Both the position numbers and the translations under genes were made by a program. DNA of 19,449 nucleotides from a virus (lineage: Duplodnaviria > Heunggongvirae > Uroviricota > Caudoviricetes), in IMG/VR virus record IMGVR_UViG_3300009551_000045, positions 1-19,449 of that record; one strand, written 5' to 3'. The notes below the pieces were generated by a model that did not search any database, had not been told where the DNA came from, and saw nothing but the letters and a program-made list of their open reading frames with translations. Of the stretch, positions 72-17,573 are shown one piece after another. Every line of letters starts with the position of its first letter. The stretch's first letter is position 1.

Positions 72-75
72 ATAA

Positions 76-85
76 TATAAATATC
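76..85 (-). promoter_or_regulatory. GATATTTATA motif, putative phage late promoter
   Basis: Same 10-mer at 1135-1144 and 5253-5262, and GATATTTATT twice at 4658-4677, always on the minus strand upstream of a start codon. Confidence 0.6.
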
Positions 86-113
86 AAAGCCGGGGCTATT
101 TTTTCCCGGCTTT
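86..113 (-). terminator. GC-rich hairpin, probable intrinsic terminator after the frameshift-extended chaperone gene
   Basis: Perfect 9-bp inverted repeat aaagccggg (86-94) / cccggcttt (105-113) with a 10-nt loop containing the TAG (98-96) of the +1-frame ORF. The U-tract on the minus strand is short (TTTGATATTT). Confidence 0.65.
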
Positions 114-1116: not shown

Positions 1117-1134
1117 AACTTAATTATTTGTGTA

Positions 1135-1144
1135 TATAAATATC
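1135..1144 (-). promoter_or_regulatory. GATATTTATA motif, putative late promoter for the chaperone gene
   Basis: Exact copy, 18 nt upstream of ATG 1116 and just downstream of the terminator at 1151-1181. Confidence 0.6.
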
Positions 1145-1150
1145 ATATAA

Positions 1151-1181
1151 TAGAAAAACCTCCGGGTCTAAGCGGAGGTTT
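1151..1181 (-). terminator. Rho-independent terminator ending the sheath-tube-acidic protein transcript
   Basis: Minus strand reads AAACCTCCG-CTTAGACC-CGGAGGTTTTTCTA: 9-bp stem (1181-1173 / 1164-1156), 8-nt loop, U5 tract. Confidence 0.85.
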
Positions 1182-1225
1182 CTGATTCCGAAGGTAGCTC
1201 AGAATTACGAGTTCTGATACAATTT

Positions 1226-1822
1226 TTATAGTTCAAATCTATGATCCTTAATACGTTCTGCAACTTCGGCAGGCTTTTTGCCTTTCTTATGAGCTTTCGC
1301 TATATAAGGCATATATTTTTCTTTGATTTTCTTTCCATGACTTTCATCTTTACAATATTTACCAAGAGCTTTGACTACCTTATCACCAAATATATTGGCT
1401 TTTTCAGCATCTTCTTGCAAGATAGCATCTCTTGCATCTTTCATTTCAGCAATAACTTTGGTTGCTTCATGTAAATGTTTAGCTAATTTTCCTGAAAGTT
1501 TTTCAAGTTTCTTGTCTTTATTAGCTTCTGCAAATTCATTTAATGAATTAACATCTTCAGACAATCCTTGAAGAGTTGCGAATACTTCAGATACTTTGGG
1601 AGCAATTTCTTCTTCGTTAAGTTCTCCTTCTTCCGATGAACCTTCTTCTAATTCACCAGGCTTTACGAATTTTACATCATCTCCATTTTTAGTAGCATCT
1701 TTAGCTTTCTGCTTATTTTCTTCAGATGCTGAATCTGAAGTTCCATCCGGAGACGGAATCGTTAATTCTTCTTTAAGGATCTCTTTATAACATTCTCTTA
1801 CTAGGTCTTTAAATTTTTTCAT
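1226..1822 (-). CDS. Hypothetical phage protein with an acidic low-complexity N-half and a helical, Lys-rich C-half; possible internal head protein
   Basis: 198-aa ORF co-oriented 12 nt after the tube gene. Glu/Lys-rich with many (L/I)-x-E motifs. No family recognised with certainty. Confidence 0.75.
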   Translation of the reverse strand: MKKFKDLVRECYKEILKEELTIPSPDGTSDSASEENKQKAKDATKNGDDVKFVKPGELEEGSSEEGELNEEEIAPKVSEVFATLQGLSEDVNSLNEFAEANKDKKLEKLSGKLAKHLHEATKVIAEMKDARDAILQEDAEKANIFGDKVVKALGKYCKDESHGKKIKEKYMPYIAKAHKKGKKPAEVAERIKDHRFEL

Positions 1823-1834
1823 TAGTTTGTTAAA

Positions 1835-2323
1835 TTAGAAATTCAAGACGCAATAATCCATTTTCAAAATAATAGGTATCATCAAAGCTTGATCACCTGC
1901 AGACCAATCCAATTCGCCAAAAGCAGCATCTTTCACCCAAGATCCTATCATTTTCCATTCTCCGATTATATCTCCAACTGGTCCAACCAGTTCAAGTGTA
2001 ATATCTTTTTTATAGAAATCAGAATAACCAGCACGTCCTGTAACAGATTCATAACAAAGACGAGCCCATTCCATTACAGCTTGTTGTCCTGAAGGTGTAA
2101 TAGGATCGTATAATTCCATTGTTACATCCTGCCATTCTCTTTTACCAGCTACGAAGAAATAAGTATTGATATGATCAATTTTGATTTCTGCATCAGTAAA
2201 GTGGGGAGAAGTGACTTTTTTAATAATGTAGGATGGAATTCCATCAATATACATGTAGAAACGGTTAGCTACCTTTGGTTGAAAAGCAGTAAACATAATT
2301 TCGTTAGGGTCCAGAATCGACAT
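1835..2323 (-). CDS. Tail tube protein (T4 gp19-like)
   Basis: 162 aa directly after the sheath. The NRFYMYIDGIP...VAGKREWQDVTMELYDPITPSGQQAVMEW...YKKDITLELVGPVGDIIGEWKMIGSWVKDAAFGELDW...LKMDYC pattern is characteristic of gp19-like tubes. Confidence 0.93.
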   Translation of the reverse strand: MSILDPNEIMFTAFQPKVANRFYMYIDGIPSYIIKKVTSPHFTDAEIKIDHINTYFFVAGKREWQDVTMELYDPITPSGQQAVMEWARLCYESVTGRAGYSDFYKKDITLELVGPVGDIIGEWKMIGSWVKDAAFGELDWSAGDQALMIPIILKMDYCVLNF

Positions 2324-2349
2324 TGATATTTAATTAGTTATATTATTAA

Positions 2350-4617
2350 TTATTGTGAAACAACTGTACCATTAGAAATAAGAGTTCCTGTTGGGTTTAT
2401 TGTAAAATTCAATACGATATATTCCGCAGTTTTAGTTGGCCATACTCTTATTTCGCCGACTAATTCATTCTGATCGATAACATCAGCAGTATTATTAGTT
2501 TCATCCATTATTACCTGGATAGCATAAACACCTTGTTTAGATTGGACAAAAGAGAAATAAGGTCTTACAGCGTTTAAGAATTTATTTCTTGTTTGAGTAG
2601 TATTACCTTCAAATACAAGATATTTTGCAACAGATGCTGAGAATTTACGAAGATTGATAAGCAATCTACGAACATTGATCCTATTAAGAGCAGTATTTGC
2701 ACTTTGAAGTGTCTTTTGACCCCATACAGCAATACCAGTTCCTGGGAAATTAGCTATAGGGTTAATTTTAGCCGGATACAGGACATTTCTTTCTTTCTCC
2801 GATAGTTTATTAACCAAACCAACAACCCCTGAAATTCCACCTCTATTTAAACCAGCAGGAGCATACCATTCTTGACCGACTGAATCATTGTAAGCAATTA
2901 CTTGTGGTATAACTACAGAAGGCGGAACAGCCACTTTTTTATTATTAGAGCTATCAATTATTTTAACCCATGAATAATATACTGCTCCATAATTAGAGTC
3001 CAACGAAGCTGCACTAGCTTTAGCAGTAGCAATCGTATCATTTTGACCACAAAGATCTGGGATATATATCGCATCTGTTCTACTTTCTACTGTACTAAGA
3101 CCATATTGAACCACATAAGGATGTAATGTATTAATAACACCCGGCATAACCAACAGATTCATATCATATTGTTCAACATTAGATAATATATCCAAAGCAC
3201 GAATATAAGAAAGAGTTCCTGGTGCAGTAGATGTACTAAGATCAAATCCAAATAAATTACTTGGAGTTATATTAGCACCTGTATTTTTAATAACGGTATA
3301 ATTCATACCATCCAATCCACCTTGGAAAGGGACAAGGAACTTGTCATCTCCCGCAGGAAGTATAAAATTGGAATTATTACCTTGAGTAGCTTCTTTCGGA
3401 ATAGGATTAAGATAATTTAGATTATCTGTATTATTATAATTAAATCCAGAATATATCACAGAACTAGCCGTACTGTAAACCATACTAGCTGTAGGCAATG
3501 AATATCCTACAAATCCTGTGATTGTTTCATATACAGCCTCAAATCCTGCAGGATATACCTTCGGATCAATAGACCCATTCTTTACAGCATCACTTACCTC
3601 TACCCATACATAAGCAGAATTGTTAGGATAATCTCCATAATCAATTACTTTCTGTATATTTGAATCATATTTACTATATTCATCTCCAATTTTTTGGCTT
3701 ATATAAGAAGAGGCATCATCCGGATCTATTGTAAGATTATTAAATTGATCTACAATAGAGGGGACATTATCTGTATCATTGAAAGATCTCAAAAGAACAG
3801 AGAAAGTACTATATACTCCATCTACTGTGCTAGGTGAAATATCAGCAATAGCTAATTTCACGTCAATATTAGAGTCATTTCCAGGAGATATATGATGAAA
3901 TCTGAATAATCTTACACCACCTTCTGAAATGATCCACGGGGTTATAGCCTCACTATATCCACCTTGATTTGAACTTGTAAAAGTACAAGGGGCACTACTC
4001 AAAATAAGAGTAGCCTGATCAGAATAAGAAGAAGTACCTATAGCAACAGAAGCAGATAAATAATTATTGAATAACAAATAAGGAAATGCCGATCCTGTTT
4101 TAAAAGAAGGACTATTACCAAATATCTTTGTGATATAATTGTTATTTGTAGGATTCAAAGAAGAAGATGCCTGATAATTGACCGAGCTTCCACTTACATA
4201 TAAATTAAAACTATTCAAACTACCCGTAGCAAGTGTTGCCGAAAGTTCCGCTGCACCATCATTTGCGTTAATACTTGGATGTAAAACCGATAAAACAGAG
4301 CTTCCACTGACAAAAGCTGCCAATTTCCTAGAAGTTCCGTCAAAACCCCATCCCCCATCTCCTAAAATTCTTACAATTGTTGCTACAGGTGCAGATTTTA
4401 GATAATTTCTTACAGCATAAGGTATATAACTAGTTGGAGTTTCCTGGCCGAATTGAGCAGTAAAATCAGAAAAGGAATACACTGGTGTTGGTACATATGC
4501 AGGTCCCTTTAAAGTTGGTCCCACAAAGGCAGCACCAATTTGAGAAATACCCGATGCTACACCAGATAAATCTGTTTCTTGTGTAAAAACGCCAGGTGAT
4601 AGAAGTCTTCCAGCCAT
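2350..4617 (-). CDS. Contractile tail sheath protein (T4 gp18-like)
   Basis: 755 aa. N-terminal LSPGVFTQETDLS and AAFVGPTLKGP; C-terminal WYAPAGLNRG...INPIANFPGTGIAVWGQKTL...RINVRRLL...FEGNT...PTKTAEYIVLNF. All are hallmark sheath motifs. Confidence 0.97.
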   Translation of the reverse strand: MAGRLLSPGVFTQETDLSGVASGISQIGAAFVGPTLKGPAYVPTPVYSFSDFTAQFGQETPTSYIPYAVRNYLKSAPVATIVRILGDGGWGFDGTSRKLAAFVSGSSVLSVLHPSINANDGAAELSATLATGSLNSFNLYVSGSSVNYQASSSLNPTNNNYITKIFGNSPSFKTGSAFPYLLFNNYLSASVAIGTSSYSDQATLILSSAPCTFTSSNQGGYSEAITPWIISEGGVRLFRFHHISPGNDSNIDVKLAIADISPSTVDGVYSTFSVLLRSFNDTDNVPSIVDQFNNLTIDPDDASSYISQKIGDEYSKYDSNIQKVIDYGDYPNNSAYVWVEVSDAVKNGSIDPKVYPAGFEAVYETITGFVGYSLPTASMVYSTASSVIYSGFNYNNTDNLNYLNPIPKEATQGNNSNFILPAGDDKFLVPFQGGLDGMNYTVIKNTGANITPSNLFGFDLSTSTAPGTLSYIRALDILSNVEQYDMNLLVMPGVINTLHPYVVQYGLSTVESRTDAIYIPDLCGQNDTIATAKASAASLDSNYGAVYYSWVKIIDSSNNKKVAVPPSVVIPQVIAYNDSVGQEWYAPAGLNRGGISGVVGLVNKLSEKERNVLYPAKINPIANFPGTGIAVWGQKTLQSANTALNRINVRRLLINLRKFSASVAKYLVFEGNTTQTRNKFLNAVRPYFSFVQSKQGVYAIQVIMDETNNTADVIDQNELVGEIRVWPTKTAEYIVLNFTINPTGTLISNGTVVSQ

Positions 4618-4657
4618 TTATAGAAGTTTATTGGTAATTAATTGATCTTTATACAAT

Positions 4658-4677
4658 AATAAATATCAATAAATATC
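4658..4677 (-). promoter_or_regulatory. Tandem GATATTTATT x2 upstream of the sheath gene, putative duplicated late promoter
   Basis: Plus strand aataaatatc at 4658-4667 and 4668-4677, an exact head-to-tail 10-mer duplication; the proximal copy ends 40 nt upstream of ATG 4617. Confidence 0.6.
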
Positions 4678-4697
4678 GAGAAAAATGATTTTTCATA

Positions 4698-4958
4698 TTA
4701 GGTTATTTCACCCGTAGAAAGATCTACTTTAACTGACCCATATTTATTTGATAATGTTGAAGATAAAACTGATTCTTCTTCTAATATCTTATAATAAGTA
4801 GACAAATAGTTTTCTTTTGTAGATTTCAATTCATCAAGTTTCTTCTCTAATTGATCAATTTGTATTACAATTGATCCTATTTCGGGAAGAATTTTATCAT
4901 AACCATCTTTTATTTGAACGATTTTATCTAATTCTTCTTGTGATAACTTGTTACTCAT
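4698..4958 (-). CDS. Small coiled-coil phage protein of unknown function
   Basis: 86 aa with a heptad-like helix (IDQLEKKLDELKSTKENYL) and C-terminal KYGSVKVDLSTGEI; sits immediately upstream of the sheath. Confidence 0.85.
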   Translation of the reverse strand: MSNKLSQEELDKIVQIKDGYDKILPEIGSIVIQIDQLEKKLDELKSTKENYLSTYYKILEEESVLSSTLSNKYGSVKVDLSTGEIT

Positions 4959-4971
4959 AACTATTTATGTA

Positions 4972-5226
4972 TTAAGACTTTATAACGGAATTATTATTTA
5001 CATTATCTATCGGAGCAGTTTTAGATGCTCCATAATAAAAACCTGCTACAGCAGAGAATGCTCCACCGAAAACGAATCCAATAGCAGCATACATTATATC
5101 TTTGTTCTCAGGAGGTACTGGCTTTATTGTTAGCAAATACAAAAGAATAAAAACTCCTAATGTAATTATCACAGCCAAAATATTACGTATTTCTACATTT
5201 ACTATTTTTTTAAAAAATTCAGTCAT
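4972..5226 (-). CDS. Small two-TM membrane protein, holin-like
   Basis: 84 aa with two hydrophobic segments (ILAVIITLGVFILLYLLTI; IMYAAIGFVFGGAFSAVAGFYYG) followed by a FYYGASK motif like that of small phage holin-type proteins. No endolysin is visible in the window. Confidence 0.6.
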   Translation of the reverse strand: MTEFFKKIVNVEIRNILAVIITLGVFILLYLLTIKPVPPENKDIMYAAIGFVFGGAFSAVAGFYYGASKTAPIDNVNNNSVIKS

Positions 5227-5252
5227 AAAAAATAATTTAGTTTGGTTACTAT

Positions 5253-5262
5253 TATAAATATC
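5253..5262 (-). promoter_or_regulatory. GATATTTATA motif upstream of the holin-like gene
   Basis: Exact copy overlapping the TGA of the 886-aa gene, 26 nt upstream of ATG 5226. Confidence 0.55.
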
Positions 5263-7921
5263 AATTACTAATGATATTAATTCTATAACTTCTTGGTATA
5301 ATCAAATAATTTTTAATAATATCAATTGTTTCAGCAAATCCTATATTAGGGTGTACTGCATCTCTCGTATTTCCATAATAATCTAAAGAAGTATAGGTAG
5401 GTCCTGGAATACCTTGTTTATATAACATACCGGTAGTTGTAGGTATGAAAAATGTACTATCTTGTAGACCTATTAATGGAATAGAAGGCACAAATCTTGT
5501 AGCAGCTGTATCCCATACTATTGTACTTCCAGGATTATTTATGAATTTATTACATCCTTGATTTAAGGTTCCAAAATTACAAGCAGTCCAAACTGTATCA
5601 GTAGGTCCTACTAAATAACAATTTTTTACAAAAAGTGAATCATGATCATAGAAATCAAATCCTGGTACATATGGATCATTTCCAATCCCAAGACCTTGAT
5701 GACGTAATGTAATAAACCAAACTTCTGGAACTGTTCGCGCTCTAATATATGGTGATAATGAAGATGTATCTCCTGGATGTGATTGACATTCTAAAAATGG
5801 ATATTTTCTCGAACTATCACTTATACAATTATAAACTCTACTTCTTCCATTATATCCTGTACTCCATAATGAAAATAAATTAAACATAGACGGAATATCA
5901 GCTGCACCCCAATTTCGAACGCAGTTACCAAAATTATTTGTGCCAAACCAACAGTTGTAAACTTCGAAATAAGACATTCTTAAAAATAACATAGCAGCAT
6001 GACCTCTTGGATTAGGAACATTCATACCAAAATTCCAAAGACTATCATGATGTATATATATTCCATATACATTATATGCAAAAATGTATGTTGGTGGATT
6101 TGATAAAGCTGAATAATCTCCAAATTTATCATGATCTATTTCAACATTTATCCATGTCTGATTTTTAGCCAAAGCTCCGATGTAAATAGCTGTATTACCT
6201 GAATTTGCTCCAACTAAAGAATCAAAAGTACAATAACTCCATCTCCATTTATAAAAACAATTTATTGTATCTCCAGTAAAATTTGGAAGAGTTGCGAATG
6301 ATCTAGGACTTGATGGGAAAAATCCATTCATTCCTCTAAATGTGCAATGATCAATCCAAATATGTTGTGAATATCCCAAATTGGCATAAGAAGTAAAAGC
6401 AACATCTATATTATCATTCATAGTCCAATTATATATATGAACCCAAAATGATGAATCTATGCTATTTGCTCCCAATGGTGATGATGTGTTAGGAGTTATA
6501 AATGATCCATTTTGCCAAACTATAGTTATATATTTACCTTCGGATCTAGTACCAATACGATCTATTGTAAAACTTCTATATCCTCCTGATCTAACTGGAA
6601 TAAATACTGTATCTCCTCCCATTAAAGATACTCCAAATGTTGTATTATTAATTAATATATTAGAATTTGTTGAGGGCCAAGTAAAATTCATCGGTGATCT
6701 TGTAGAAGAATTAACAGTAACTTGAACCGTAGCAGTTCCAGTTAATGAAGTATTATCAGTTACAGTTATTTTAAATACATAAGTTCCCTGAATAAGTCCA
6801 GCAACCCCAGTAGTTAATAAATTCGGAGATGTTATACTAGCATTATTTGGTCCACTAACTTGACTCCAAACTATATTTGATGCTGTATTTCCGCATTGAT
6901 ATGTAACACTTGCAGAAATAGATGATGAACTTGTCGGTAAAGTTATTGTTTGATTAGATCCTGGTGTAACAATTGGATTACATGTAGGTCCAACTAGTGT
7001 AGTATCGCCCTGTGCAAGCATCCAAGTAAATATATTTTGACCGGTACGATAGGTTCCCTGCGTATTTGGTGCTGGTCCTGTACCAATATTAGGTCCTATA
7101 ACTGGAATAGTGCTCCAATTTGTTACAGATGGATCATACATAGAATTCCAACAGCAATGTGATCCCCCTCCAAGAGTTTCCCAAGCAAAATAAGCGGATC
7201 CTGGAACTGTATCATTCATAGGTTGTGACCAAAGATAACCATTTCGGAAATTATCCGAGCCATTACCTTCTAAATAAAAATACTTACCACCATATTTAGC
7301 TGCCCATACTTTATAAGCACCTTGTCGTCTATCCCATGAATTAATAGCTGGATTTGGAGTACCTTCGAGAGCTACAAGAGAAGTCATGCGACTCATACCA
7401 TCTTCTGTTCCAGCAGATTTTTCAAAACATACTAAAGCTCCCCAAGTAAATGCTCCTTCCGATAATCCGGCAAAGTGTCTACCTCTCGCTTTAATATGAT
7501 AGAATTTTATTAATGTATCTACTATATTAAGAACATCTGCTGCATATGTATTTACAGAATTAGTATAACACACAGTAATTAATAAAGGATAGTGTCTACC
7601 ATTACCCAATTGTATACCTCCATCCCATCCATTTTTTAACCAAAAATGAGGACCATATACAGTCAATTTACTTGTATCAGTAGTACCTAATTCACCCTGA
7701 CCTGGCATTGTAATAATAGCCGGACGAGATGCTGTATCTGGATGGCCTGCAGTAAAATAATTACGAGGACGAGTAATTCTTATATTCCATATATTAGTAG
7801 GCCCAAATGGCGCATTGAAAATCGAAATAGTGGTATCATAGGTAATCATGTCATGAGTCTCCGACTGACTGAATCCTATGATAGGTAAAAACAGTAAAAG
7901 AAAAAATAATTTCTTAATCAT
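5261..7921 (-). CDS. Exported multidomain protein: signal peptide + alpha/beta-hydrolase (serine esterase-like) + PKD/Ig-like domain + right-handed beta-helix-like domain
   Basis: Signal peptide MIKKLFFLLLFLPIIGFS|Q; oxyanion-like PAIITMPGQGE; nucleophile elbow GLSEG (7468-7454); candidate catalytic His in GGSHCCW; PKD signature GSNQTITLP...WSQVSGPN...GLIQGTYVFKITVTDN...VQVTVN; C-half with IDHCTF/YNCWF/YNCIS beta-helix-like repeats; 16 Cys. Confidence 0.8.
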   Translation of the reverse strand: MIKKLFFLLLFLPIIGFSQSETHDMITYDTTISIFNAPFGPTNIWNIRITRPRNYFTAGHPDTASRPAIITMPGQGELGTTDTSKLTVYGPHFWLKNGWDGGIQLGNGRHYPLLITVCYTNSVNTYAADVLNIVDTLIKFYHIKARGRHFAGLSEGAFTWGALVCFEKSAGTEDGMSRMTSLVALEGTPNPAINSWDRRQGAYKVWAAKYGGKYFYLEGNGSDNFRNGYLWSQPMNDTVPGSAYFAWETLGGGSHCCWNSMYDPSVTNWSTIPVIGPNIGTGPAPNTQGTYRTGQNIFTWMLAQGDTTLVGPTCNPIVTPGSNQTITLPTSSSSISASVTYQCGNTASNIVWSQVSGPNNASITSPNLLTTGVAGLIQGTYVFKITVTDNTSLTGTATVQVTVNSSTRSPMNFTWPSTNSNILINNTTFGVSLMGGDTVFIPVRSGGYRSFTIDRIGTRSEGKYITIVWQNGSFITPNTSSPLGANSIDSSFWVHIYNWTMNDNIDVAFTSYANLGYSQHIWIDHCTFRGMNGFFPSSPRSFATLPNFTGDTINCFYKWRWSYCTFDSLVGANSGNTAIYIGALAKNQTWINVEIDHDKFGDYSALSNPPTYIFAYNVYGIYIHHDSLWNFGMNVPNPRGHAAMLFLRMSYFEVYNCWFGTNNFGNCVRNWGAADIPSMFNLFSLWSTGYNGRSRVYNCISDSSRKYPFLECQSHPGDTSSLSPYIRARTVPEVWFITLRHQGLGIGNDPYVPGFDFYDHDSLFVKNCYLVGPTDTVWTACNFGTLNQGCNKFINNPGSTIVWDTAATRFVPSIPLIGLQDSTFFIPTTTGMLYKQGIPGPTYTSLDYYGNTRDAVHPNIGFAETIDIIKNYLIIPRSYRINIISN

Positions 7922-8352
7922 TTGAAATATTCTATTCTAAATCCTTTAAAAGTATTATTCCATATAATAATCTCATTTGGATGCCATTCAATATCGCCTC
8001 TACTTTTAATATGGAAATAAACGACTCCTTTTTCATATTGTGGATTATGCTTACTGGTTTCCCAATTATCCCAAGATATATAATGAAATTTACTAGTTCT
8101 TGATTTACCTAACCAATTCCAAGTTCTATAAATCATACGAACAGATGTATCCAATTTGAAAGATACACTAATAGTATCTCTTTTGGAAGAAATACTATTC
8201 AATGCCGGTCCTTTATTATCTTTTTTAGAAGATGTATCTAAACGATATAAAGATTGAAATCTATAGTTACTTTCTAATGTCCAGGAATTATTAGGAACTT
8301 GGGCTATACTTTTAAAAGATAAAAAAATTATTAAAATTAATATATATTTCAT
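7918..8352 (-). CDS. Small exported protein of unknown function (basic, Trp/Tyr-rich)
   Basis: 144 aa; signal peptide MKYILILIIFLSFKSIA|Q; its stop overlaps the next start (ATGA at 7921-7918). Confidence 0.8.
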   Translation of the reverse strand: MKYILILIIFLSFKSIAQVPNNSWTLESNYRFQSLYRLDTSSKKDNKGPALNSISSKRDTISVSFKLDTSVRMIYRTWNWLGKSRTSKFHYISWDNWETSKHNPQYEKGVVYFHIKSRGDIEWHPNEIIIWNNTFKGFRIEYFK

Positions 8353-8357
8353 AACTA

Positions 8358-9680
8358 TTAATGTTTTGTAATTTTGATATAAGACAGAAGAGCAACTTGT
8401 TCTCCGCTTGTTAATTTACCAATATAGAATGTAAAGTTACCACCTGCATCTGGTGTTATAGCAGTCCATGTAGCTTTACTACTAGTATTTGCATTTCCAT
8501 TAAAATTCTTAGCGGTTTGCAAAACTGATCCTCTTACATTATAATTGCCTACAGCTGCAAGTGGGAAATGAGTAGTACCTGATAATTCTATATCATATGT
8601 AGTACCATCTGTTTTTAATCCACCAACTACAAATTGAGCATTAGTAGTTTGATATAAATTGCTTGTAAATACAGTTTCTTTCATGACTCCACTATTTGCC
8701 GGATCTGGTATAGTAGCATTAGTTACACCATTATTTACACCTATGCAACCTGCCGGGCTTCCAAACGTTCCCCAATTTGAATTAGAAGTAGATACTGTCG
8801 TAAATGTAATAGTAGTATTTGGTATTGTTCCAGAAATAATATGTTTACTAGGATCTCCTTGAACAATTGTCCAACCTGCTACGTTATTAGCAGCAGTTGT
8901 ATCGAATTGAAATTTAACTGAATCTGGAGTACTTGCCGCTCCTGATGTGGTACCATTTACTGTAACATTTTTAGTTGTTGCACCTCCTCCACTATTTCCA
9001 ATATTTCCTGAATACGTTCCTGGGATAGTATTTGTGTCAGATAGAGCTACATATATCGTTTGAGATATAGACCCTGAGACAGGAACCACTGTTTGTTGGA
9101 ATGCAAATGAACTATTATCTTTAGATACTTTATATCCAGCAGGAGATTGAACAGTTATATTACCCGTCAAGGCAGTACCTGTAAGCGAATATGATTGAGA
9201 ACCTCCCAATGAACCAGTTATGGAAGTAAATCCTGTTAAACTTGTTGGATTAACGATTAAAGTAGGAACAGCTGTTACTGTAGCAGAATAAGCAACATCA
9301 GCTGTAGCGGAGCCGCTAGATCCATGTATATTACCAGAATAAGATCCGGCAGAAGTAGCAGCCGCTACTCTAACATAAACGGTTCCTGAAGGATTGGATC
9401 CAAGAAATGTAATTGTATCAGTCCATGTTGAGTTATCTTTACTAATTTCCATTCCAGAACCAGTTTTCCATCCAACAGCCGCACTTAAATTACCACTAAC
9501 AAAATTAAAGGATTGAGATGCAGATGCTGTTCCTGTACTTGTTAAAAAAGCAGATAATGTATTTAATGAGTGTATATATGGCCCTGGGTTTATCTCTGTT
9601 ATACTAGAGGTAGGTTGAATTATTTGTGCCGAAGCAGAAATAGAAATTATACTAAATAAATATATTAATATTGTTTTCAT
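8358..9680 (-). CDS. Exported protein with two tandem Ig-like domains and a C-terminal beta-sandwich (possible carbohydrate-binding) domain
   Basis: Signal peptide MKTILIYLFSIISISASA|Q. Two similar ~100-aa units (SQSF/Y...ISKDN/VSKDN...VYVR/IYVA...GSYSGNI/GTYSGNI) like those in Bacteroidota surface proteins; the C-domain is beta-rich. Confidence 0.75.
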   Translation of the reverse strand: MKTILIYLFSIISISASAQIIQPTSSITEINPGPYIHSLNTLSAFLTSTGTASASQSFNFVSGNLSAAVGWKTGSGMEISKDNSTWTDTITFLGSNPSGTVYVRVAAATSAGSYSGNIHGSSGSATADVAYSATVTAVPTLIVNPTSLTGFTSITGSLGGSQSYSLTGTALTGNITVQSPAGYKVSKDNSSFAFQQTVVPVSGSISQTIYVALSDTNTIPGTYSGNIGNSGGGATTKNVTVNGTTSGAASTPDSVKFQFDTTAANNVAGWTIVQGDPSKHIISGTIPNTTITFTTVSTSNSNWGTFGSPAGCIGVNNGVTNATIPDPANSGVMKETVFTSNLYQTTNAQFVVGGLKTDGTTYDIELSGTTHFPLAAVGNYNVRGSVLQTAKNFNGNANTSSKATWTAITPDAGGNFTFYIGKLTSGEQVALLSYIKITKH

Positions 9681-9689
9681 ATTATCGAT

Positions 9690-12600
9690 TTAAAGAGAAT
9701 AATCAATGTTAATAACAACAATTGACGAAGTGTTTAAGGTTCCCGAATTAAAATCAAATGTTGCCTGAGTTGCAGAACTAGTAATACTAGCTGTACCAGC
9801 CATATATCCGCCTGCTCCATTTATATTAACATTTTCAACCCCAAAACCAATACCACTTTGCGTTGTAACACTGGTAGCAATTGGAAGACTAAACGTTATT
9901 CTACTGGACGTATTCGTTGCAGAAGTTTGTATTATTACACTTATACGAGCGTGTACAATGTTACCAACTTGTATATAATTTGCACTACTTAACGAAATAC
10001 TAGCTATATTAGTTGTTCCTGTCAAAGTTGGTGTGAAACTACCAGAGGTTCCTCCTCCAGGAGAAACCTGCCATGAAGCATTACCATTAGCATCAGAAGT
10101 AAGAACTTTAAGATTTCCCTGTGTTCCATCAACTATGGATATACCACCACCAAAATAAGATTTACCGGTAGCCACTTTTAATGCCCAAGGACTTGGTATA
10201 GTTACATTAGTTCCAGCAGTAGGAGCCCCAGCAATATACAAAGTAGATGCATTTGTGAATGTTACACCAGTATTAACTGCTGACATTAAAATATTACTTA
10301 AACCAACTAATGCCACATCTGCCCTAGTTCCACCACTACCAGTAAATCCAGCATCACTCACAGCTGGAGATATATTAATTGCAGAACCAAGAGTGCCATT
10401 AAATTGAACTGTTCCATTAGAAATTATTGATGTTGAAGCTAAATTAGCCAACCCGTTATTTAAATTAAGACCTCCAAGTGTTAATGTACTTGTTGTAGCC
10501 AAATCTTGAGGTATTGTTAAAGTTAAATTACCCGTTTGATTAGCTCCAGACGTTCCATTAACAAGAACTTGATTAGCTGTACCTTTAACTGCATAAGTGA
10601 TACCACTCAAACCAGTACCAGCACCATTTGTGGGAAGTAATGTTCCAGACGTGGGTAATGTTACGTTAGTATTACCAGTAAGAGTTAATGTAGCGTTAAA
10701 AGCTCCCGAAGTTGCAAAATTACCACCCAACGTTATTGTCTTGGTAGCATTATTTACACCAGTACCACCGTGATCAGGTGGTACTATACCTGAAAGTCTA
10801 GAAACATCAACAGATGATCCGGACATCATAACGCTATCTATACCACAGGATGGACATATACCAGTACTAGTTATAACCCATTCATAAGTATTTGTGTGTG
10901 AAGGAGCATTATTGTGAATAACTTCACCAGCAAAATATAATCCGGTTGTAGGAGCTGATGCTGCGTAAATATCTTGATTAGATACAGCAACAACTACCCA
11001 CGTATTTAATAGATCACTTCTTTTTAGTATAGCCGACTGTTTATCACGTAAGATAACCATTCTACTAACACCAAATTTATTAACATCAATATTACCACCA
11101 ACACCATTTAACATAACGACACCACTATTACCTGCCTGATCATTAGCACGAATAGATATAAATTCACCTGGCCCGGCATTACTATTGATTGTGCTAATAT
11201 AAGCTGAAGAAGTGGTAGTAGTGTTAACCACAATATCTTTGAAATAGTTTGCTGTAATAGCATTACTGGATACACTTAACGTTTGACCAGCAGATGAACT
11301 GGTAACAGATCCATTTGTTTGAAAACTATTTCCCCAAATATCAAATCCACCAGCAGTACCTGAAGGAGAAGTGTACCATTTATTAACTACACTATATACA
11401 AAATTACCTGCAAATATTCCATGACTCAAATCATCTCCTATAATATAAGCATTCGTACCAACACCTACATTTTTCCAAGTATTCCAAAAAAAGTTTATAG
11501 TACTACGATTAGTCAGATGTACGCCAATGGAATCATTTTCAAACCAACCAGATATTACTGACACACCTTGTGCATTTGATGTCCGCATTATATCATGATA
11601 TGCCTGTACTGTTGGTCGATCAAATACAACAGCACCTTGTATCTGATCATTACTCGTTCCTAAAGAATTTAATTCAACTGCACAAGTATTTAAGTTAGTA
11701 GACCCTGCACCATAAGCTTCTAAATTACGAAAAGTTGTTTGACCTAACTGTCCTGACACATATACCGCTCTTGCAGTTGTATCAGCAGTATTGTATACCC
11801 TAACATCCTCAAAAGTAAGGAATTGGTTAGCTAGATCTCCAGAACCATCAGACGCGATTAAATTAATAGCACGTCCTGAACAGTTCTGAATTTGAACATT
11901 GTTCATTCTAAAATGCCATACGCCGCCATTGAAAGGTGAACTTACAGATCCAACAGCTGTAAAATTAAAACAACCTTGACCTACATATCCAGAATTCATT
12001 ATAACTTGTAAGTCACTAATACCCCACTGATCAACAGGACCCGGAACTATACCAAAAATATACTTCCTAGAACTGTTATTTGGTGCAATCCTAACTCGAA
12101 CATTATCTCCTTGTATAATAACACCTGTTTTGATAGTGATACTATCTACCATGATGTTTTTATTACCACTGATACCTTCATCAATTATCACCTTTCTGGA
12201 TAATGCTCCGGTAGTGGCAGCATAATCAATTACAGACTGTAATTGAGCGGTCATATCGGTAGAACCATCACCTAGAACCTTGAACCATATACTATGAATA
12301 GGTCCTGTAAATTCTCTTTTAAATCGATGGCCAGCCGCATCAACTATACATGTACCTAAATTATCTGTAGTAGTATTATCAGAAGCATCATATACGTATT
12401 TTCCACTAATATATTGGTCTTTTATAAAATAAGCTTTATTTGCAGATGGAGTAGCTACCAAAGCTCTAAGTTCGGAAACATAAATACCTACAACTGTTCT
12501 TCCATATAATCCAACAGTATCCAAGTTAACCTTAAAGTTAATACTATCTCTATTAGTTTCAGTAGTAACATTTAGTAATCCAGCAGCACTTGCACTTATA

Positions 12601-13325
12601 CCTTTGAATAACATAGAGTCCTTGGTAAAATTAAATAGTACCATCTGATTACCATGACCATACCATCCAACATAAATAGTTGAATCAATACGTTTTTTAT
12701 CATTTGCAGTCAACGATCCAGCATTATTATGATCGGCTCCAGTTAATACAATGGAATTACTATTAGATATCTTAATGGTATCGGCTGATGATGATTGTGA
12801 TAAAGATAATGATTGAGTTCCTCCTATTGTAGAAAAAGGAGTTACCCACACTTTCCCGCTATTATCTCTTAACATAAAACTATCAGTAGATAATGGAGAT
12901 GCTTTGTTAGGTAAACCGGTGATACTAAAATCAAATCCAGTCGTACCTAATGTAGTATTTCGTAATAAATTACCACCAAAATAAAGACTATCACCATGAG
13001 ATCCTGTTAATCCATTTACAGGATATACATTGAATGTACCCGATAATAATGTCCATCTATGACCTCCGGTTATAACAGTGTCTCTTTTGTATATATCACC
13101 AGTTGATCTGATTTGAATAAAAGCTCCTAAACTATCTAAACCTCCATTTAAACCATTCGTAGTATCGTTTACTACAGGTATATAAATGTTTAATTGTGCT
13201 CTCAATCTAGCATCGGAAACAGTTACACCAGGTCCACTTCTTAATGCAATAGAAGGAATTTTATTTTGTGCTTTTGCAAAAAAAATTGAAAAAAGCGGAA
13301 TAAGAAATATTAATAATCGTTTCAT
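9690..13325 (-). CDS. Tailspike/depolymerase-like mosaic protein with a pectate-lyase-3-type beta-helix, carrying an N-terminal Sec signal peptide
   Basis: Signal peptide MKRLLIFLIPLFSIFFAKA|Q; spike-head motif VSELRAL...GTCIVDAAGHRFKR; beta-helix cap WFKVLGDGSTDMTAQLQSVID (~12300-12230); post-helix SAPTTGLYFAGEVIHNNAP...EWV; fibre motifs PDHGGTG and KVLTSDANGNASW; C-terminal GSFTPTL...YIQVGNIV fibre-tip-like domain. Confidence 0.75.
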   Translation of the reverse strand: MKRLLIFLIPLFSIFFAKAQNKIPSIALRSGPGVTVSDARLRAQLNIYIPVVNDTTNGLNGGLDSLGAFIQIRSTGDIYKRDTVITGGHRWTLLSGTFNVYPVNGLTGSHGDSLYFGGNLLRNTTLGTTGFDFSITGLPNKASPLSTDSFMLRDNSGKVWVTPFSTIGGTQSLSLSQSSSADTIKISNSNSIVLTGADHNNAGSLTANDKKRIDSTIYVGWYGHGNQMVLFNFTKDSMLFKGISASAAGLLNVTTETNRDSINFKVNLDTVGLYGRTVVGIYVSELRALVATPSANKAYFIKDQYISGKYVYDASDNTTTDNLGTCIVDAAGHRFKREFTGPIHSIWFKVLGDGSTDMTAQLQSVIDYAATTGALSRKVIIDEGISGNKNIMVDSITIKTGVIIQGDNVRVRIAPNNSSRKYIFGIVPGPVDQWGISDLQVIMNSGYVGQGCFNFTAVGSVSSPFNGGVWHFRMNNVQIQNCSGRAINLIASDGSGDLANQFLTFEDVRVYNTADTTARAVYVSGQLGQTTFRNLEAYGAGSTNLNTCAVELNSLGTSNDQIQGAVVFDRPTVQAYHDIMRTSNAQGVSVISGWFENDSIGVHLTNRSTINFFWNTWKNVGVGTNAYIIGDDLSHGIFAGNFVYSVVNKWYTSPSGTAGGFDIWGNSFQTNGSVTSSSAGQTLSVSSNAITANYFKDIVVNTTTTSSAYISTINSNAGPGEFISIRANDQAGNSGVVMLNGVGGNIDVNKFGVSRMVILRDKQSAILKRSDLLNTWVVVAVSNQDIYAASAPTTGLYFAGEVIHNNAPSHTNTYEWVITSTGICPSCGIDSVMMSGSSVDVSRLSGIVPPDHGGTGVNNATKTITLGGNFATSGAFNATLTLTGNTNVTLPTSGTLLPTNGAGTGLSGITYAVKGTANQVLVNGTSGANQTGNLTLTIPQDLATTSTLTLGGLNLNNGLANLASTSIISNGTVQFNGTLGSAINISPAVSDAGFTGSGGTRADVALVGLSNILMSAVNTGVTFTNASTLYIAGAPTAGTNVTIPSPWALKVATGKSYFGGGISIVDGTQGNLKVLTSDANGNASWQVSPGGGTSGSFTPTLTGTTNIASISLSSANYIQVGNIVHARISVIIQTSATNTSSRITFSLPIATSVTTQSGIGFGVENVNINGAGGYMAGTASITSSATQATFDFNSGTLNTSSIVVINIDYSL

Positions 13326-16300
13326 ATATAAAGAATTTGAAAATATGAATCCTGACTGAAGGTTGTATTATTTATATCAATTCTACCTTGAGAAGAGGTA
13401 AAACTGAACCAGGAAGCTAATGATCTTGAAATAGGAGCCATTATAAATCCTTCTTGACTAAACTGTAAAATACTAGAACTAACTAATAAAGAACTACTGA
13501 AAATTGTTGATCCAGAGGAAGGAGTAAATGATTGACCATCACCTATAACAAAATTTATAACTTTAGTAAAATTTCCAGCACTACCAGTATTAACCCATTG
13601 GAATCCTGATTGCGTCTTTATCAATGTTTGATTCAACGATCCTGTAGAACCAATTGAATCATATATCGATTTGCTAATATAAATATCTCCAAATACTTGT
13701 AAAACGGCATTATTGGATCCTGTATTTCTTCCTATTAATATAGAACTACCTGATTGATATATACTACTTGTTGTTAATATATTTGATCCACTAAATACTG
13801 CTAAATAATTAGATAAACCCCGTAATGAAGATGATGGTAAATAATTACTTTCACTTGCAAATACATTATTTATTATGGTATTAAAAGATGAAGAATCAAC
13901 TATATAAGATGCTGTAAATGAATTGAAAGTTCCTGTAATAACATATGATCCGGTAAGAGTTGATAAAGATCCAGAAATGGTCTTGATTCTTGTGTCAAAT
14001 GAACCGGAATCTATGATATAAGAAGATGTAAATGTATTAAATGATTGTGTTAATAAATTAAATGAAGAAGTTAATGTATATTTACTTTCTGAAGCAAATA
14101 TATTAGCAATCTGAATATTCGTGGATGAAGTATATGCCTGGAATATACCATTTGTAACAAATCCATTTGAGCCAGTAGATGATCCTGATAGATCAGACCA
14201 TTTTATTCCTCCTATTATCGAAGAAATTACTTGCCCATTTGATCCAGTATTACCAAATGAATCATATAAATATTGTCCTACATGAAGAGAACTGGTATTT
14301 AGGTAAAGATCTTTATTAAATTCAATTGATTCGGAATAATAAGTAGCTACATCATTTCTACTCATTGAACTAAATCCATTTCCTATTATAAATAATGAAT
14401 TAGCATTTATCTTATTAAACCTACCTATCACTAATTGATATGAACCTGTTGAAATAGTACCAAGACCTTCAGTATGTGATCCAAACCCATAGGATATACT
14501 TCCGGAACCTTCAGCATGAGAATAATCACCATAAGCAGTATTTCCTGTTCCTTCAGAATGTGCTCCTACCCCATTAATAGCATTATTAGAACCCTCAGCA
14601 TGACCTATATATGAATTTACAGTATTGTTAAAACCGTGGGCAAAGGATCCTGATCCATATAAAATATTATTAAATCCAAAAGCTACCGTATTAGTAACAG
14701 ACGGAGTAAAGTTAGTTGGTTGTATAATTGCACCAGATATAGATATAATAGAATTACCTAGTTGATTTATTAGACTCGATGTTAAACTATGAGGAGTATT
14801 AAACAATGCTATTTGTCCTGAACTACCGCTTATGAAATTATTAAATGAAGATGTAAGTAAATAATTACTCTCAGAAGCATATACATTATTTATTTTAACA
14901 TCTGTAGAGGATGAATAAGTAAGAAAACTAGAGCTAAATATATTAAATGATGCGGTTGATAAATAATTAGATTCAGAAGCAAATATGTTATTTATTCTAT
15001 TACTGAATGATGAAGAATCTATATTATAAACAGATTGAGACACAACCTGCATATTAACAATATTACCATTATTGTCAACACCAAGAACGGCACTAGAAGT
15101 ATTGGCATAAAAAGATAATACTATGCTGCCCGTTTTATTAACAACAAAAGCGTTAGATAATGATCCTGTTGAACTTCCATTACCTATTATAAAAATAGGA
15201 TCACCTCCAATCCATGAAGATTGATTAGACGAAGCAATTGGATCATTAAATCTACCCAATACAACGGCATATGCTGCAGATGCTGATAAATTTATACCAC
15301 CTAAAGTAACAGATCCGACTCCTGGAGTGATATTACTTTGACCTCCTACGACTACTGAAGAATTACCAATCGCGCTATTATTAGCACCATCAATAACAAC
15401 CGCCATATTGTTGGCAAAGTTATTAACACCACCCAATACTATAGCATTTGATCCTGTCGTGCTATTATTTGAATTACCAAAAACGATATTATTATTAGTA
15501 AAAAATGCCCCAACTTGAACATTATTTCTTTTAAATATAAGATCCTGAGCATTTGTAGAGCCTAGAAACGATCCAGAAGAAATTGAGTTTCCTGAAAGAT
15601 TCCATCCGCCAGATCCAGTAGAAATCCAAAGTATTCCACCTGGAGCAAAACCTAACATTTGTCCTGCAGATCCAGTTGAATTTGAAGAATCATATATAGA
15701 TCCAGATATATATATAGAACCAAATAATTGTAATAAACTATTATTTATTGATCCTGTTCTTCCTAATATTATAAAACTACCAGATTGATATATGGAACTC
15801 TGTGTTATCGCAGAAGATCCGGTGAATACAGCTAAGTAATTATTATTGCCTATTATAGATGCAGTTTGAAGATAATTGCTTTCGGAAGCAAATACATTTA
15901 TAATTCTAGTTAAAAATGAACTAGAGTCATTTAGGTAAGACGAACTAAAATTTGAAAATGAAGAAGTGAGCAGATAATTCGACTCAGAAGCGTATACATT
16001 GCTTAGACTGTTATTTATCGAAGCTGAGATGTTGAGATAACTAGCAGTAAAAGGATTATAAGATGATGTTGGAACATAATTACTTTCGCTTGCAAATACA
16101 TTTGCGATGTTTATTAATATTGAAGCAGAATCTATAAAATACGATGATGTAAATGTGTTGAAAGAACCAGTTAAAACATATCCAGCAATAAATGACGACG
16201 TAAGAGCAGCTATATCGGTAATATCCAAAGCTCTAAAAATAGGGATTCCAGATGTTCCTACTGGAGAAGCATATACAAGATTTGCACTTTGAGTATTTAA

Positions 16301-17392
16301 AGATGCAGATAAAACTCCTGCACCAACTATTGGTGAATTATAAACACTGAATAATGAAGAAGGTAATGATAATCCAACGGAAGTTACAGAACCACTAGCA
16401 AATATTCCACTTCCACTTCCTAAAGAAATCCATCCAACACCATTATGAAATTCAATATTAGTAGTTTCGGTATTTCCTCTAATCATAGCAAAAGAACCTG
16501 TTGGTCTTTGAGCAGTAGTACCACGAGGTAATAACAAATATGAAGTATCGTTTACAGATACAGGTCCAGCTACCTGCAATAGGGCATTATTAAGACCATT
16601 CACTTGATTGATCAAAAGTGAAGATCCAGAATAATAAAGTAAACCAAAAGTAAATCCTTTTGATCCACTATATATAGGTATATAATTATTACTTCCTAAT
16701 ATAGAACCTGTAGGTAAGTAATTACTTTCAGAAGAATAAACATTATTTATTCTAGTATCTATTGAAGATGAATCATTTTTTATTGAACTGCTTAAAATAT
16801 TAAAAGATGATGTTGGAACATAATTACTTTCTGAAGAATAAACGTTATTAATTTTATTTAAAAAGGAAGAAGAATCTACAAAATAAGAAGCAGTAAAAGG
16901 ATTATAAGATGATGTTGGAACATAATTACTTTCTGATGCATTAATATTTACCAACTTCTGATTAATAGAAGATGAATCTATTACGTAGGATGCACTAAAT
17001 ACACCGAATGTTGTAGTAGTTATATATGATCCAGATGGTATAGATCCAGAAATGGCTTTGATTCTGATATCGAATGAACCAGAATCTACAAAATAAGAAG
17101 CAGTAAAAGGATTATAAGATGATGTTGTAGTATATCCACTTTGAGATGAATATATGTTCTTATCATTATTATAAAATGAACTAGAATCGTTATTATAACT
17201 TGATGAAAAATTATTAAAAGATCCTGTAGTTACATAAGATCCTGTTAATAAAGATGATATTCCATTTTGGAAATAATCTTTCATTGCACGATAACTTGTC
17301 TCTGTTAATGCACCTGTATTTGGATCTCCTATAAATCCTATAGAAGAATCATTTATTGAGCCAGATGGAAGATTTATTATTTTTTTTGACAT
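13322..17392 (-). CDS. Long tail fibre / adhesin-like protein with Ser-rich 34-aa repeats and two YadA-head-like repeat blocks
   Basis: 1356 aa, no signal peptide, no Cys found. Ten (A/S)SES(N/K)Y repeat cores; YadA/Hep_Hag-like blocks NAIVLGG...AVVLGRFN and GHAEG/AHSEG/SHAEG/SHTEG; phage fibre module SVTSVGLSLP...SGIPIFRAL. Confidence 0.8.
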   Translation of the reverse strand: MSKKIINLPSGSINDSSIGFIGDPNTGALTETSYRAMKDYFQNGISSLLTGSYVTTGSFNNFSSSYNNDSSSFYNNDKNIYSSQSGYTTTSSYNPFTASYFVDSGSFDIRIKAISGSIPSGSYITTTTFGVFSASYVIDSSSINQKLVNINASESNYVPTSSYNPFTASYFVDSSSFLNKINNVYSSESNYVPTSSFNILSSSIKNDSSSIDTRINNVYSSESNYLPTGSILGSNNYIPIYSGSKGFTFGLLYYSGSSLLINQVNGLNNALLQVAGPVSVNDTSYLLLPRGTTAQRPTGSFAMIRGNTETTNIEFHNGVGWISLGSGSGIFASGSVTSVGLSLPSSLFSVYNSPIVGAGVLSASLNTQSANLVYASPVGTSGIPIFRALDITDIAALTSSFIAGYVLTGSFNTFTSSYFIDSASILINIANVFASESNYVPTSSYNPFTASYLNISASINNSLSNVYASESNYLLTSSFSNFSSSYLNDSSSFLTRIINVFASESNYLQTASIIGNNNYLAVFTGSSAITQSSIYQSGSFIILGRTGSINNSLLQLFGSIYISGSIYDSSNSTGSAGQMLGFAPGGILWISTGSGGWNLSGNSISSGSFLGSTNAQDLIFKRNNVQVGAFFTNNNIVFGNSNNSTTGSNAIVLGGVNNFANNMAVVIDGANNSAIGNSSVVVGGQSNITPGVGSVTLGGINLSASAAYAVVLGRFNDPIASSNQSSWIGGDPIFIIGNGSSTGSLSNAFVVNKTGSIVLSFYANTSSAVLGVDNNGNIVNMQVVSQSVYNIDSSSFSNRINNIFASESNYLSTASFNIFSSSFLTYSSSTDVKINNVYASESNYLLTSSFNNFISGSSGQIALFNTPHSLTSSLINQLGNSIISISGAIIQPTNFTPSVTNTVAFGFNNILYGSGSFAHGFNNTVNSYIGHAEGSNNAINGVGAHSEGTGNTAYGDYSHAEGSGSISYGFGSHTEGLGTISTGSYQLVIGRFNKINANSLFIIGNGFSSMSRNDVATYYSESIEFNKDLYLNTSSLHVGQYLYDSFGNTGSNGQVISSIIGGIKWSDLSGSSTGSNGFVTNGIFQAYTSSTNIQIANIFASESKYTLTSSFNLLTQSFNTFTSSYIIDSGSFDTRIKTISGSLSTLTGSYVITGTFNSFTASYIVDSSSFNTIINNVFASESNYLPSSSLRGLSNYLAVFSGSNILTTSSIYQSGSSILIGRNTGSNNAVLQVFGDIYISKSIYDSIGSTGSLNQTLIKTQSGFQWVNTGSAGNFTKVINFVIGDGQSFTPSSGSTIFSSSLLVSSSILQFSQEGFIMAPISRSLASWFSFTSSQGRIDINNTTFSQDSYFQILYI
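13830..17130 (-). repeat. Intragenic 102-bp (34-codon) repeat family, including exact DNA duplications
   Basis: taattacttt recurs at 16719, 16821 and 16923 (period 102). Exact 47-bp duplicate at 16871-16917 = 17081-17127; exact 45-bp duplicate at 16043-16087 = 16889-16933. Confidence 0.9.
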
Positions 17393-17393
17393 C

Positions 17394-17552
17394 TTATGTA
17401 ATTATAGTTTTAAAAGTATCAGCTTCTAGCCTATTTCCTGCCTGATTTGGGTGTAGACTATCAAGAAATAATGAATTTGGATCTCCTATTAAACCTAAAG
17501 ATGAATCTAAAATAGATCCTGAGTCTAATTGATTTATTCTTTTATCTGCCAT
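17394..17552 (-). pseudogene. 52-aa chimeric mini-ORF (fibre N-terminal module fused to an SGNH-hydrolase C-terminus); probable internal-deletion remnant
   Basis: Hand translation: MADKRINQLDSGSILDSSLGLIGDPNSLFLDSLHPNQAGNRLEADTFKTIIT*. The first 27 aa match the start of the 1356-aa protein at 18 positions; the remainder carries DxxH(PN)xxG of SGNH block V. An A-rich initiation region lies upstream and TAA-G-ATG couples it to the next gene. Confidence 0.75.
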
Positions 17553-17573
17553 TTTTTTATTTTCAATTTTTTT

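Follow-up and report, generated by a model that had tools for sequence, protein, structure and literature searches.

We describe four adjacent genes at the end of the tail-fibre operon of an uncultured tailed phage, the products of which very probably leave the cytoplasm of the infected cell and are processed on the way. The genes lie in a stretch of 19,449 nucleotides (the window; positions 1 to 19,449 of IMG/VR record IMGVR_UViG_3300009551_000045), which opens an 83.4-kb contig of 32% GC and covers its first 19.4 kb. All genes of the window are on the minus strand, and by its gene content the backbone is that of a T4-like myovirus. Each of the four proteins starts with a leader predicted to be cut before a glutamine, and the two largest are rich in glycosylation sites of the kind used by Bacteroidota. 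The same series of genes recurs beside fibre or baseplate genes in other phages. These features suggest that late host-recognition proteins of this phage probably mature outside the cytoplasm, which is the site where tailed-phage particles are built.

The cassette and its leaders

The four open reading frames (ORFs) encode proteins of 1211, 440, 144 and 886 aa, with the following parts.

9690-13325, minus strand: 1211-aa predicted exported tailspike/fibre-like protein; overlaps the fibre gene by ATGA
13269-13325, minus strand: 1211 aa, leader, residues 1-19
12966-13268, minus strand: 1211 aa, loosely conserved N-terminal module, residues 20-120
10860-12434, minus strand: 1211 aa, putative beta-helix, residues 298-822
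9693-10841, minus strand: 1211 aa, fibre-like C-terminal part, residues 829-1211
8358-9680, minus strand: 440-aa predicted exported glycan-binder-like protein
9627-9680, minus strand: 440 aa, leader, residues 1-18
8940-9584, minus strand: 440 aa, two Ig-like (BACON/DUF1573-type) sandwiches, residues 33-247, from fold matches
8361-8933, minus strand: 440 aa, lectin/CBM-like domain, residues 250-440, from fold matches
7918-8352, minus strand: 144-aa predicted exported protein, possibly a small beta-barrel; leader, residues 1-17 (8302-8352)
5261-7921, minus strand: 886-aa predicted exported enzyme
7868-7921, minus strand: 886 aa, leader, residues 1-18
6992-7867, minus strand: 886 aa, esterase of the carbohydrate esterase family 1 (CE1) type with an alpha/beta-hydrolase fold, residues 19-310 (G-L-S154-E-G, His255)
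6713-6961, minus strand: 886 aa, K319L-like PKD domain, residues 321-403 (Pfam PKD, E=1.6e-16)
5597-6694, minus strand: 886 aa, right-handed parallel beta-helix, residues 410-775 (TM 0.64-0.75)
5264-5596, minus strand: 886 aa, low-confidence, disordered basic tail, residues 776-886

All four leaders have a K/R n-region, a hydrophobic core of 10-13 residues, small residues at -3 and -1, and Gln at +1. Up to the predicted cleavage they read MKRLLIFLIPLFSIFFAKA (1211 aa), MKTILIYLFSIISISASA (440 aa), MKYILILIIFLSFKSIA (144 aa) and MIKKLFFLLLFLPIIGFS (886 aa), each followed by Q. Leaders of the Sec/signal peptidase I (SPI) type (basic n-region, core of 7-15 residues, small residues at -3/-1; judged by inspection and a simple scan) are present on all four window proteins and on the 31 cassette-type proteins of eight loci (the window and L001, L002, L003, L005, L006, L011 and L012), and Gln is at +1 in 31 of 31. 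Exposure of this glutamine, known as the Q-rule, is specific to SPI substrates of Bacteroidota (PMC5837995). A lipobox Cys, as expected for lipoproteins cut by signal peptidase II, is absent at and near the predicted cleavage sites of all four. In a crude scan of the ~100 ORFs of the 83-kb contig, only these four combined a leader with Gln at +1; the remaining positives were small membrane-protein-like ORFs without that Gln, and none of the flanking virion genes had a leader. In AlphaFold2 (AF2) models of the 440- and 886-aa proteins, the leader is a helix that stands apart, and the linker after it is modelled at low confidence.

An initial annotation of this DNA had described the four genes, their lengths, their leaders with Gln at +1 and the lack of leaders on flanking virion genes, and we reproduced its coordinates, lengths and N-termini as well as the last point. 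The chaining that it reported was also found: ATGA overlaps join the genes at 13325-13322 and 7921-7918, and the other two gaps are 9 and 5 nt. A promoter and terminator scan within the cassette gave nothing above chance, with a consensus unsuited to the host or to T4-type late promoters.

The same annotation had allowed that the real starts might lie downstream of the leaders, and conservation speaks against this. The next in-frame starts are at residues 41, 77, 51 and 25, respectively, and use of any of them would drop conserved sequence. For example, the leader and the mature N-terminus Q-SETH-x-F-x-TYDTT of the 886-aa protein are kept in at least 25 relatives, phage-type and bacterial. This conservation rejects a start at Met25, and the public call of 862 aa (P0001) that uses it is therefore wrong. 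Automated annotation may conceal such leaders elsewhere in phage catalogues, given that one public call already trims one.

A fifth ORF, overlooked by the scan, lies outside the window and away from the fibre region (contig 37280-37708, minus strand, 142 aa), directly after a terminase-like gene. Its long leader ends in NFRSIS followed by QTID, and it is possibly another Q-rule exported protein.

Glycosylation sequons and bacterial relatives

A second signature agrees with the leaders. Bacteroidota use the O-glycosylation sequon D-(S/T)-(A/I/L/V/M/T) (PMC8550257). There are 13 such sequons in the 886-aa protein, where shuffled sequences predict 2.7 +/- 1.6, and 13 in the 1211-aa protein, where they predict 5.0 +/- 2.1. 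This is an enrichment of 2.6-4.8 fold, and the observed count was attained in 0 of 500 shuffles. In the sheath, the fibres and other large virion proteins, sequons are at or below expectation. At five other loci the ratio of observed to expected sequons is 1.8-3.9 in leader-bearing proteins versus 0-1.5 in their neighbours, and the sites are positionally conserved, including those in the phage-only beta-helix. It is because sequon enrichment and the Q-rule (PMC5837995) agree that we regard export and processing of the cassette proteins as very probable, and the export reading first proposed from the leaders has thus gained both their conservation and an independent kind of mark.

Cytoplasmic virion and neighbour proteins of this genome, L001, L003 and L005 tend to have fewer sequons than shuffles predict (for example, 2 against 7.0 expected in a 1795-aa protein, and 0 against 4.3 in L001 neighbours). 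This shortage may be an effect of composition or residue order.

Two of the cassette proteins, of 886 and 440 aa, share domains with secreted proteins of bacteria. The N-terminal 45% of the 886-aa protein is 45-55% identical to type IX secretion system (T9SS) proteins of Chitinophagaceae; over this part and the last 60-75% of the 440-aa protein, taken together, identities to proteins from Chitinophagaceae, Puia and Sphingobacteriales are 45-63%. From these identities we infer that the host is a member of the Bacteroidota of the Chitinophagaceae/Sphingobacteriales kind. The bacterial proteins (e.g., P0029, P0034, P0131 and P0132) have the same esterase-PKD and BACON-lectin domains, the same type of leader and the same mature QSETHxFxTYDTT, with the 45-63% identity extending over the common domains and the catalytic Ser, His and three sequons kept. 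They differ in ending with a type A T9SS sorting domain (PF18962) and in often having CBM6 or RCC1 modules, and some fuse both domain types in one protein. In contrast, the phage 886-aa protein has no sorting domain and has a phage-only beta-helix half instead.

No T9SS sorting domain, of type A (PF18962/TIGR04183) or type B, was found in the four proteins by Pfam or NCBIfam. Among full-length phage-type relatives, PF18962 is missing from every phage copy of both the 886 and the 440 family, whereas most bacterial relatives have it, and the phage 440-aa protein stops exactly where PF18962 starts in its bacterial relatives. Since the phage copies are missing this domain, we infer that they are not T9SS cargo and would be kept in the periplasm until lysis. 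The C-terminus of the 440-aa protein (SYIKITKH) was considered as a degenerate sorting domain and rejected: bacterial relatives show the same end, followed by a separate PF18962.

Putative functions of the four proteins

Judged by its matches, the 1211-aa protein appears to be a mosaic, tailspike-like beta-helix protein and to be glycanase-like. A precomputed annotation gives a match to PF27114 (Phage_tail_beta); our own Pfam scan at E<=0.01 gave none for this protein. Its beta-helix is 41% identical to a leader-bearing 739-aa protein of L001 with Pect-lyase domains (PF27114, PF12708), and there are short, weak tblastn matches to Klebsiella depolymerases and to Bacillus phage Goe8. A search of PDB sequences found nothing. 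The protein is mosaic with the big leader-bearing proteins of other loci, the common part being a loose module of ~100 residues after the leader, and such mosaicism is the pattern typical of receptor-binding proteins.

The 886-aa protein appears to be an enzyme that acts on carbohydrates. In its AF2 model (pLDDT 77.9), the esterase domain has Foldseek matches to 1gkl, 5vol, 6ne9 and 7b5v (E ~1e-5 to 1e-6), of which the first three are feruloyl and acetyl-xylan esterases, and GLS154EG and His255 are invariant across 27 sequences of the family. By sequence and model, residues 19-310 are a carbohydrate esterase family 1-like alpha/beta hydrolase. The protein has 16 Cys. Its full-length phage-type relatives (P0002-P0038) share with it (5264-5350 in the window) a short, basic, beta-strand-like end that is modelled at low confidence, for example IRIKTGHKRKFIRI or KPRGRKYIYH; this tail is a possible sorting or docking signal.

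The model of the 440-aa protein is of higher confidence (pLDDT 86.6), and homologues 41-61% identical to it are in at least five phage contigs. The 144-aa gene is always immediately upstream of the esterase gene and overlaps it. Its product has 3 relatives in all among 1.8 billion representatives, and is 42% identical to a 146-aa protein of L002. A structure search of the Atlas provides a weak lead that it could be a small lipocalin-like barrel.

Scans of the window proteins with Pfam, PHROGs and NCBIfam gave almost nothing for the cassette apart from the PKD domain, and by megablast and tblastn neither the 886-aa nor the 440-aa protein had a relative among cultured phages. Fold and family matches are in line with the domains first suggested from the sequence, namely a beta-helix resembling glycanases, an Ig-like binder and an esterase-PKD-beta-helix protein.

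Recurrence of the cassette in other phages

The survey of related genomes that the initial annotation had proposed showed a cassette of the exported type conserved at the fibre and baseplate loci of other phages. The gene series, a big variable protein and then proteins of ~440, ~140 and ~900 aa, is present in L001, L011 and L012, which are one related family of large phages, in L002, a 98-kb contig that has another backbone, and in L005 and L006/L007, which are small myovirus-type contigs. L003 has a variant with other middle genes. At least four phage backbones have the cassette next to genes for fibres or the baseplate. In L005 and L006 it is directly after the baseplate wedge genes, the usual place of tail-fibre genes, and in the window, L001, L011 and L012 it is after a leaderless fibre. 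Contigs of matching length in the two homologue lists point to several further contigs with both the 886 and 440 families. The Flavobacterium phage immuto, which has a related backbone and in which fibres, 86-aa-like coiled-coil protein, sheath, tube and hub come in the same order, has no leader-bearing genes. Because it is on several backbones and is missing in immuto, the cassette appears to be accessory and to have moved from one backbone to another.

Some loci have further leader-bearing genes. Extra small Q-rule leader proteins (106-147 aa) are encoded after the cassette in L005 (14510-14830) and L006 (14419-14862 and 14886-15254), and these could be exported helpers or chaperones.

A candidate junction with the leaderless fibre

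The gene directly upstream of the cassette encodes a 1356-aa tail fibre without a leader (13322-17392), which ends in a small domain of its own.

13325-13579, minus strand: ~85-aa C-terminal domain of the leaderless 1356-aa tail fibre

In L001, L011 and L012 (proteins of 452-453 aa) and in L006 (256 aa), the big leader-bearing gene likewise has a leaderless gene directly upstream that ends in the same domain, which is common to three lineages. This recurrence suggests that the domain is a candidate junction or dock, fibre to fibre, for the exported module. A complex prediction, in which the fibre C-terminal domain and the mature N-terminal module of the 1211-aa protein were each present in three copies, scored 0.01 against a mark of 0.32 and is neutral on binding.

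Leader-bearing proteins recorded in virions of Cellulophaga phages

Proteins with Q-rule leaders are already on record as parts of phage particles. In Cellulophaga phage phi10:1 (NC_021802), gp091-gp095 all have such leaders, and the GenBank record lists gp091-gp094 as structural/virion proteins from experimental tandem mass spectrometry (MS/MS). In Cellulophaga phage phi18:3 (NC_021794), gp085-gp087 have Q-rule leaders and are likewise recorded as virion proteins by MS/MS. Seven of the eight leader-bearing tail-end proteins of these phages are thus recorded in virions, and the premise of the initial annotation that structural proteins lack signal peptides fails in this phylum. The leaders receive no remark in these records or in the literature searched.

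The two phages resemble the window phage in infecting Bacteroidota and in having consecutive tail-module genes with Q-rule leaders, including those for pectate-lyase-like and fibre-like proteins. However, they are a siphovirus and a podovirus, whereas the window phage is a T4-like myovirus; phi10:1 has no sequon enrichment; and their leader proteins look like the sole fibres, whereas the window cassette is additional to conventional fibres.

A model for maturation outside the cytoplasm

We postulate that the four genes extend the tail-fibre operon, are transcribed with it late in infection, and encode products that would leave the cytoplasm. The proteins would be exported by Sec, cut before Gln by signal peptidase I and capped as pyroglutamate by the glutaminyl cyclase of the host, and this is the step most strongly indicated. 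They would then fold in the periplasm, form disulfides and probably be O-glycosylated at many D-(S/T)-(A/I/L/V/M/T) sites. Lacking a T9SS sorting domain, they would stay in the periplasm until lysis. We hold these three steps to be highly probable. In the last and least certain step, the proteins would join the finished particle, either once the holin has opened the inner membrane or later in the lysate, and would become distal parts of the fibre or enzymes at its side. Specificity would come from the variable beta-helix protein of 1211 aa. In the conserved trio, the 440-aa protein would bind glycans, the 886-aa protein would deacetylate and cleave, and the 144-aa protein would be a helper or chaperone. 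A candidate site for attachment of the module is the leaderless fibre of the gene just upstream, at its conserved C-terminal domain.

We give the whole chain, from periplasmic maturation to joining the virion at lysis, about an even chance. Joining of the virion is favoured because the Cellulophaga records list leader-bearing, non-homologous tail-end proteins in virions by MS/MS, and also because the ~85-residue domain of the leaderless upstream gene recurs, which suggests a fibre-to-fibre junction. Several observations weigh against it. There is no sequence homology of phi10:1 gp090-gp095 to the cassette, and MS/MS detection in purified virions could instead reflect co-purifying secreted proteins. 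In L002 and L005, the ~85-aa domain does not precede the cassette. The phage has leaderless fibres of its own (670 and 1356 aa) and does not need the cassette as its sole receptor-binding gear, and immuto does without leader-bearing genes altogether. A general form of the model falls just short of an even chance in our judgement: in tailed phages of Bacteroidota, host-recognition parts and exported helpers would be secreted by Sec, capped with pyroglutamate, glycosylated by the host in the periplasm and docked onto virions built in the cytoplasm when lysis merges the compartments, and the cassette would be a mobile version of this arrangement, handed on between phage backbones that are unrelated.

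Alternatively, the proteins could mature in the same way and never be on the virion. Freed at lysis or leaking earlier, they would strip capsule, exopolysaccharide (EPS) or matrix from around the burst cell, allowing progeny to diffuse and reach neighbouring cells. Their domains are of the kinds that secreted carbohydrate-active enzymes have, and the 886 and 440 domains are common to bacterial T9SS cargo that also has CBM6, RCC1 or PKD. The accessory nature of the cassette and its mobility between phage backbones fit such a role, as does the presence of ordinary fibres in the phage. However, lysis releases cytoplasmic proteins anyway, and free release would not account for export unless folding or glycosylation needs the periplasm. 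The constant placement in fibre or baseplate operons and a mosaicism like that of receptor-binding proteins, with a retained N-terminal module, suit virion parts better, and the analogous Cellulophaga proteins are annotated in virions by MS/MS. On balance we think that free enzymes, and the clearing role that they would have, are the main rival to virion parts but less likely than these.

Two other explanations are less probable still. The enzymes might remodel the envelope from within, acting in the periplasm on the nascent surface polysaccharide or receptor of the host, and thereby block superinfection and prevent progeny from sticking to debris. Receptor-masking proteins (T5 llp, cor) are encoded beside receptor-binding genes, and the predicted retention in the periplasm without a T9SS sorting domain is consistent with such a role. 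WceF of Pantoea stewartii, a bacterial tailspike-like enzyme of the periplasm that is reported to modify exopolysaccharide, indicates that the envelope can be a site of such chemistry (PMC7949094). Nevertheless, four large proteins and 8 kb far exceed the needs of known exclusion factors, late co-expression with the fibres leaves scant time for exclusion, and the fibre-like C-terminal part of the big protein suggests outward binding, all of which make this role improbable. Lastly, the N-termini could be uncleaved anchors or cytoplasmic assembly tags, or translation could start further downstream, as P0001 has it for the 886-aa protein. We give very little credence to this explanation. Relatives from both phages and bacteria, bona fide T9SS cargo among them, keep the leader and cleavage motif, and later starts would remove conserved residues; cores of 10-13 residues are too short for membrane anchors; and neither Gln at +1 in all 31 proteins nor sequon enrichment would make sense for cytoplasmic proteins.

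Relation to known systems and implications

In the textbook account, tailed phages are assembled entirely in the cytoplasm. If the proposed maturation and joining at lysis are correct, this view of virion assembly would change: receptor-binding and depolymerase parts would cross the periplasm and gain host glycans, and fibres made in the cytoplasm of E. coli would be unprocessed and unglycosylated. The reading of host range from genomes, and the handling of such genes by gene callers and annotators, would change as well. Gln at +1 together with glycosylation sequons could also serve, from sequence alone, to link uncultured phages to hosts among the Bacteroidota. The cultured Cellulophaga phages, the records of which already combine unremarked leaders with virion MS/MS, allow a direct test of the idea.

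Phage tailspike and fibre depolymerases and branched receptor-binding complexes (e.g., T4 gp34-37, CBA120 and G7C) resemble the cassette in combining beta-helix glycanase and esterase activities, in mosaic evolution, in the fibre-gene neighbourhood and in a possible serial fibre junction. To our knowledge, known tailspike and fibre depolymerases fold and assemble in the cytoplasm, without a signal peptide. WceF is reported as a glycan-modifying enzyme with a tailspike fold, a signal peptide and a periplasmic context, but it is encoded by a bacterial gene of an EPS cluster and is neither phage-borne nor linked to fibres (PMC7949094). Prophages of Porphyromonas gingivalis encode Q-rule proteins of unknown function that are predicted SPI substrates, which has been read as an adaptation to the secretion pathway of the host (Matrishin et al. 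2023, PMC10367356). They are like the cassette proteins in being phage-encoded predicted SPI substrates that expose Gln; unlike the enzyme cassette in the fibre operon of a lytic phage, they are scattered small genes of temperate phages and were proposed to modify the outer membrane (PMC10367356). The remark on these prophages and the account of bacterial WceF (PMC7949094) were the closest literature found. Our search found no description of exported fibre or depolymerase modules in tailed phages, the original Cellulophaga phage paper being outside its scope. The suggestion that the system is undescribed would apply, within the literature searched, to such modules and not to phage-encoded Q-rule proteins, which are known from P. 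gingivalis prophages (PMC10367356).

The phage backbone and neighbouring genes

The cassette lies between the 1356-aa fibre on one side and a small membrane protein on the other. Other genes of the window are the following.

17574-18257, minus strand: leaderless GDSL/SGNH esterase, between the two conventional fibre genes (Pfam, E=3e-13)
4972-5226, minus strand: 84-aa protein with a single strong hydrophobic segment, directly downstream of the cassette (PHROG 9990, function unknown)
2350-4617, minus strand: sheath (Pfam Phage_sheath_1 and 1C)
1835-2323, minus strand: gp19-like tube
352-1116, minus strand: gp26-like hub

By sheath comparison, the closest cultured relatives are Microcystis phage Mel-JY01 and Flavobacterium phage immuto. 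The two leaderless fibres upstream of the cassette (670 and 1356 aa) have an N-terminal adaptor motif in common, M..K.I..LP...D....GDP.TG.L..., located in the proteins encoded at 13322-17392 and 18257-19449 of the window (the latter gene continues to contig position 20269). The same motif is at the N-terminus of L003 proteins encoded at 6359-7858, 7877-8152 and 12890-13795, and is in none of the leader-bearing proteins. It is probably a baseplate adaptor. The phage seems to have two esterases of different type, an SGNH esterase on the cytoplasmic route and the CE1-type esterase on the export route. The 84-aa protein downstream of the cassette could be holin-like or a membrane protein, and in L001 there is a weak Phage_holin_2_3 match amid the leader-bearing genes.

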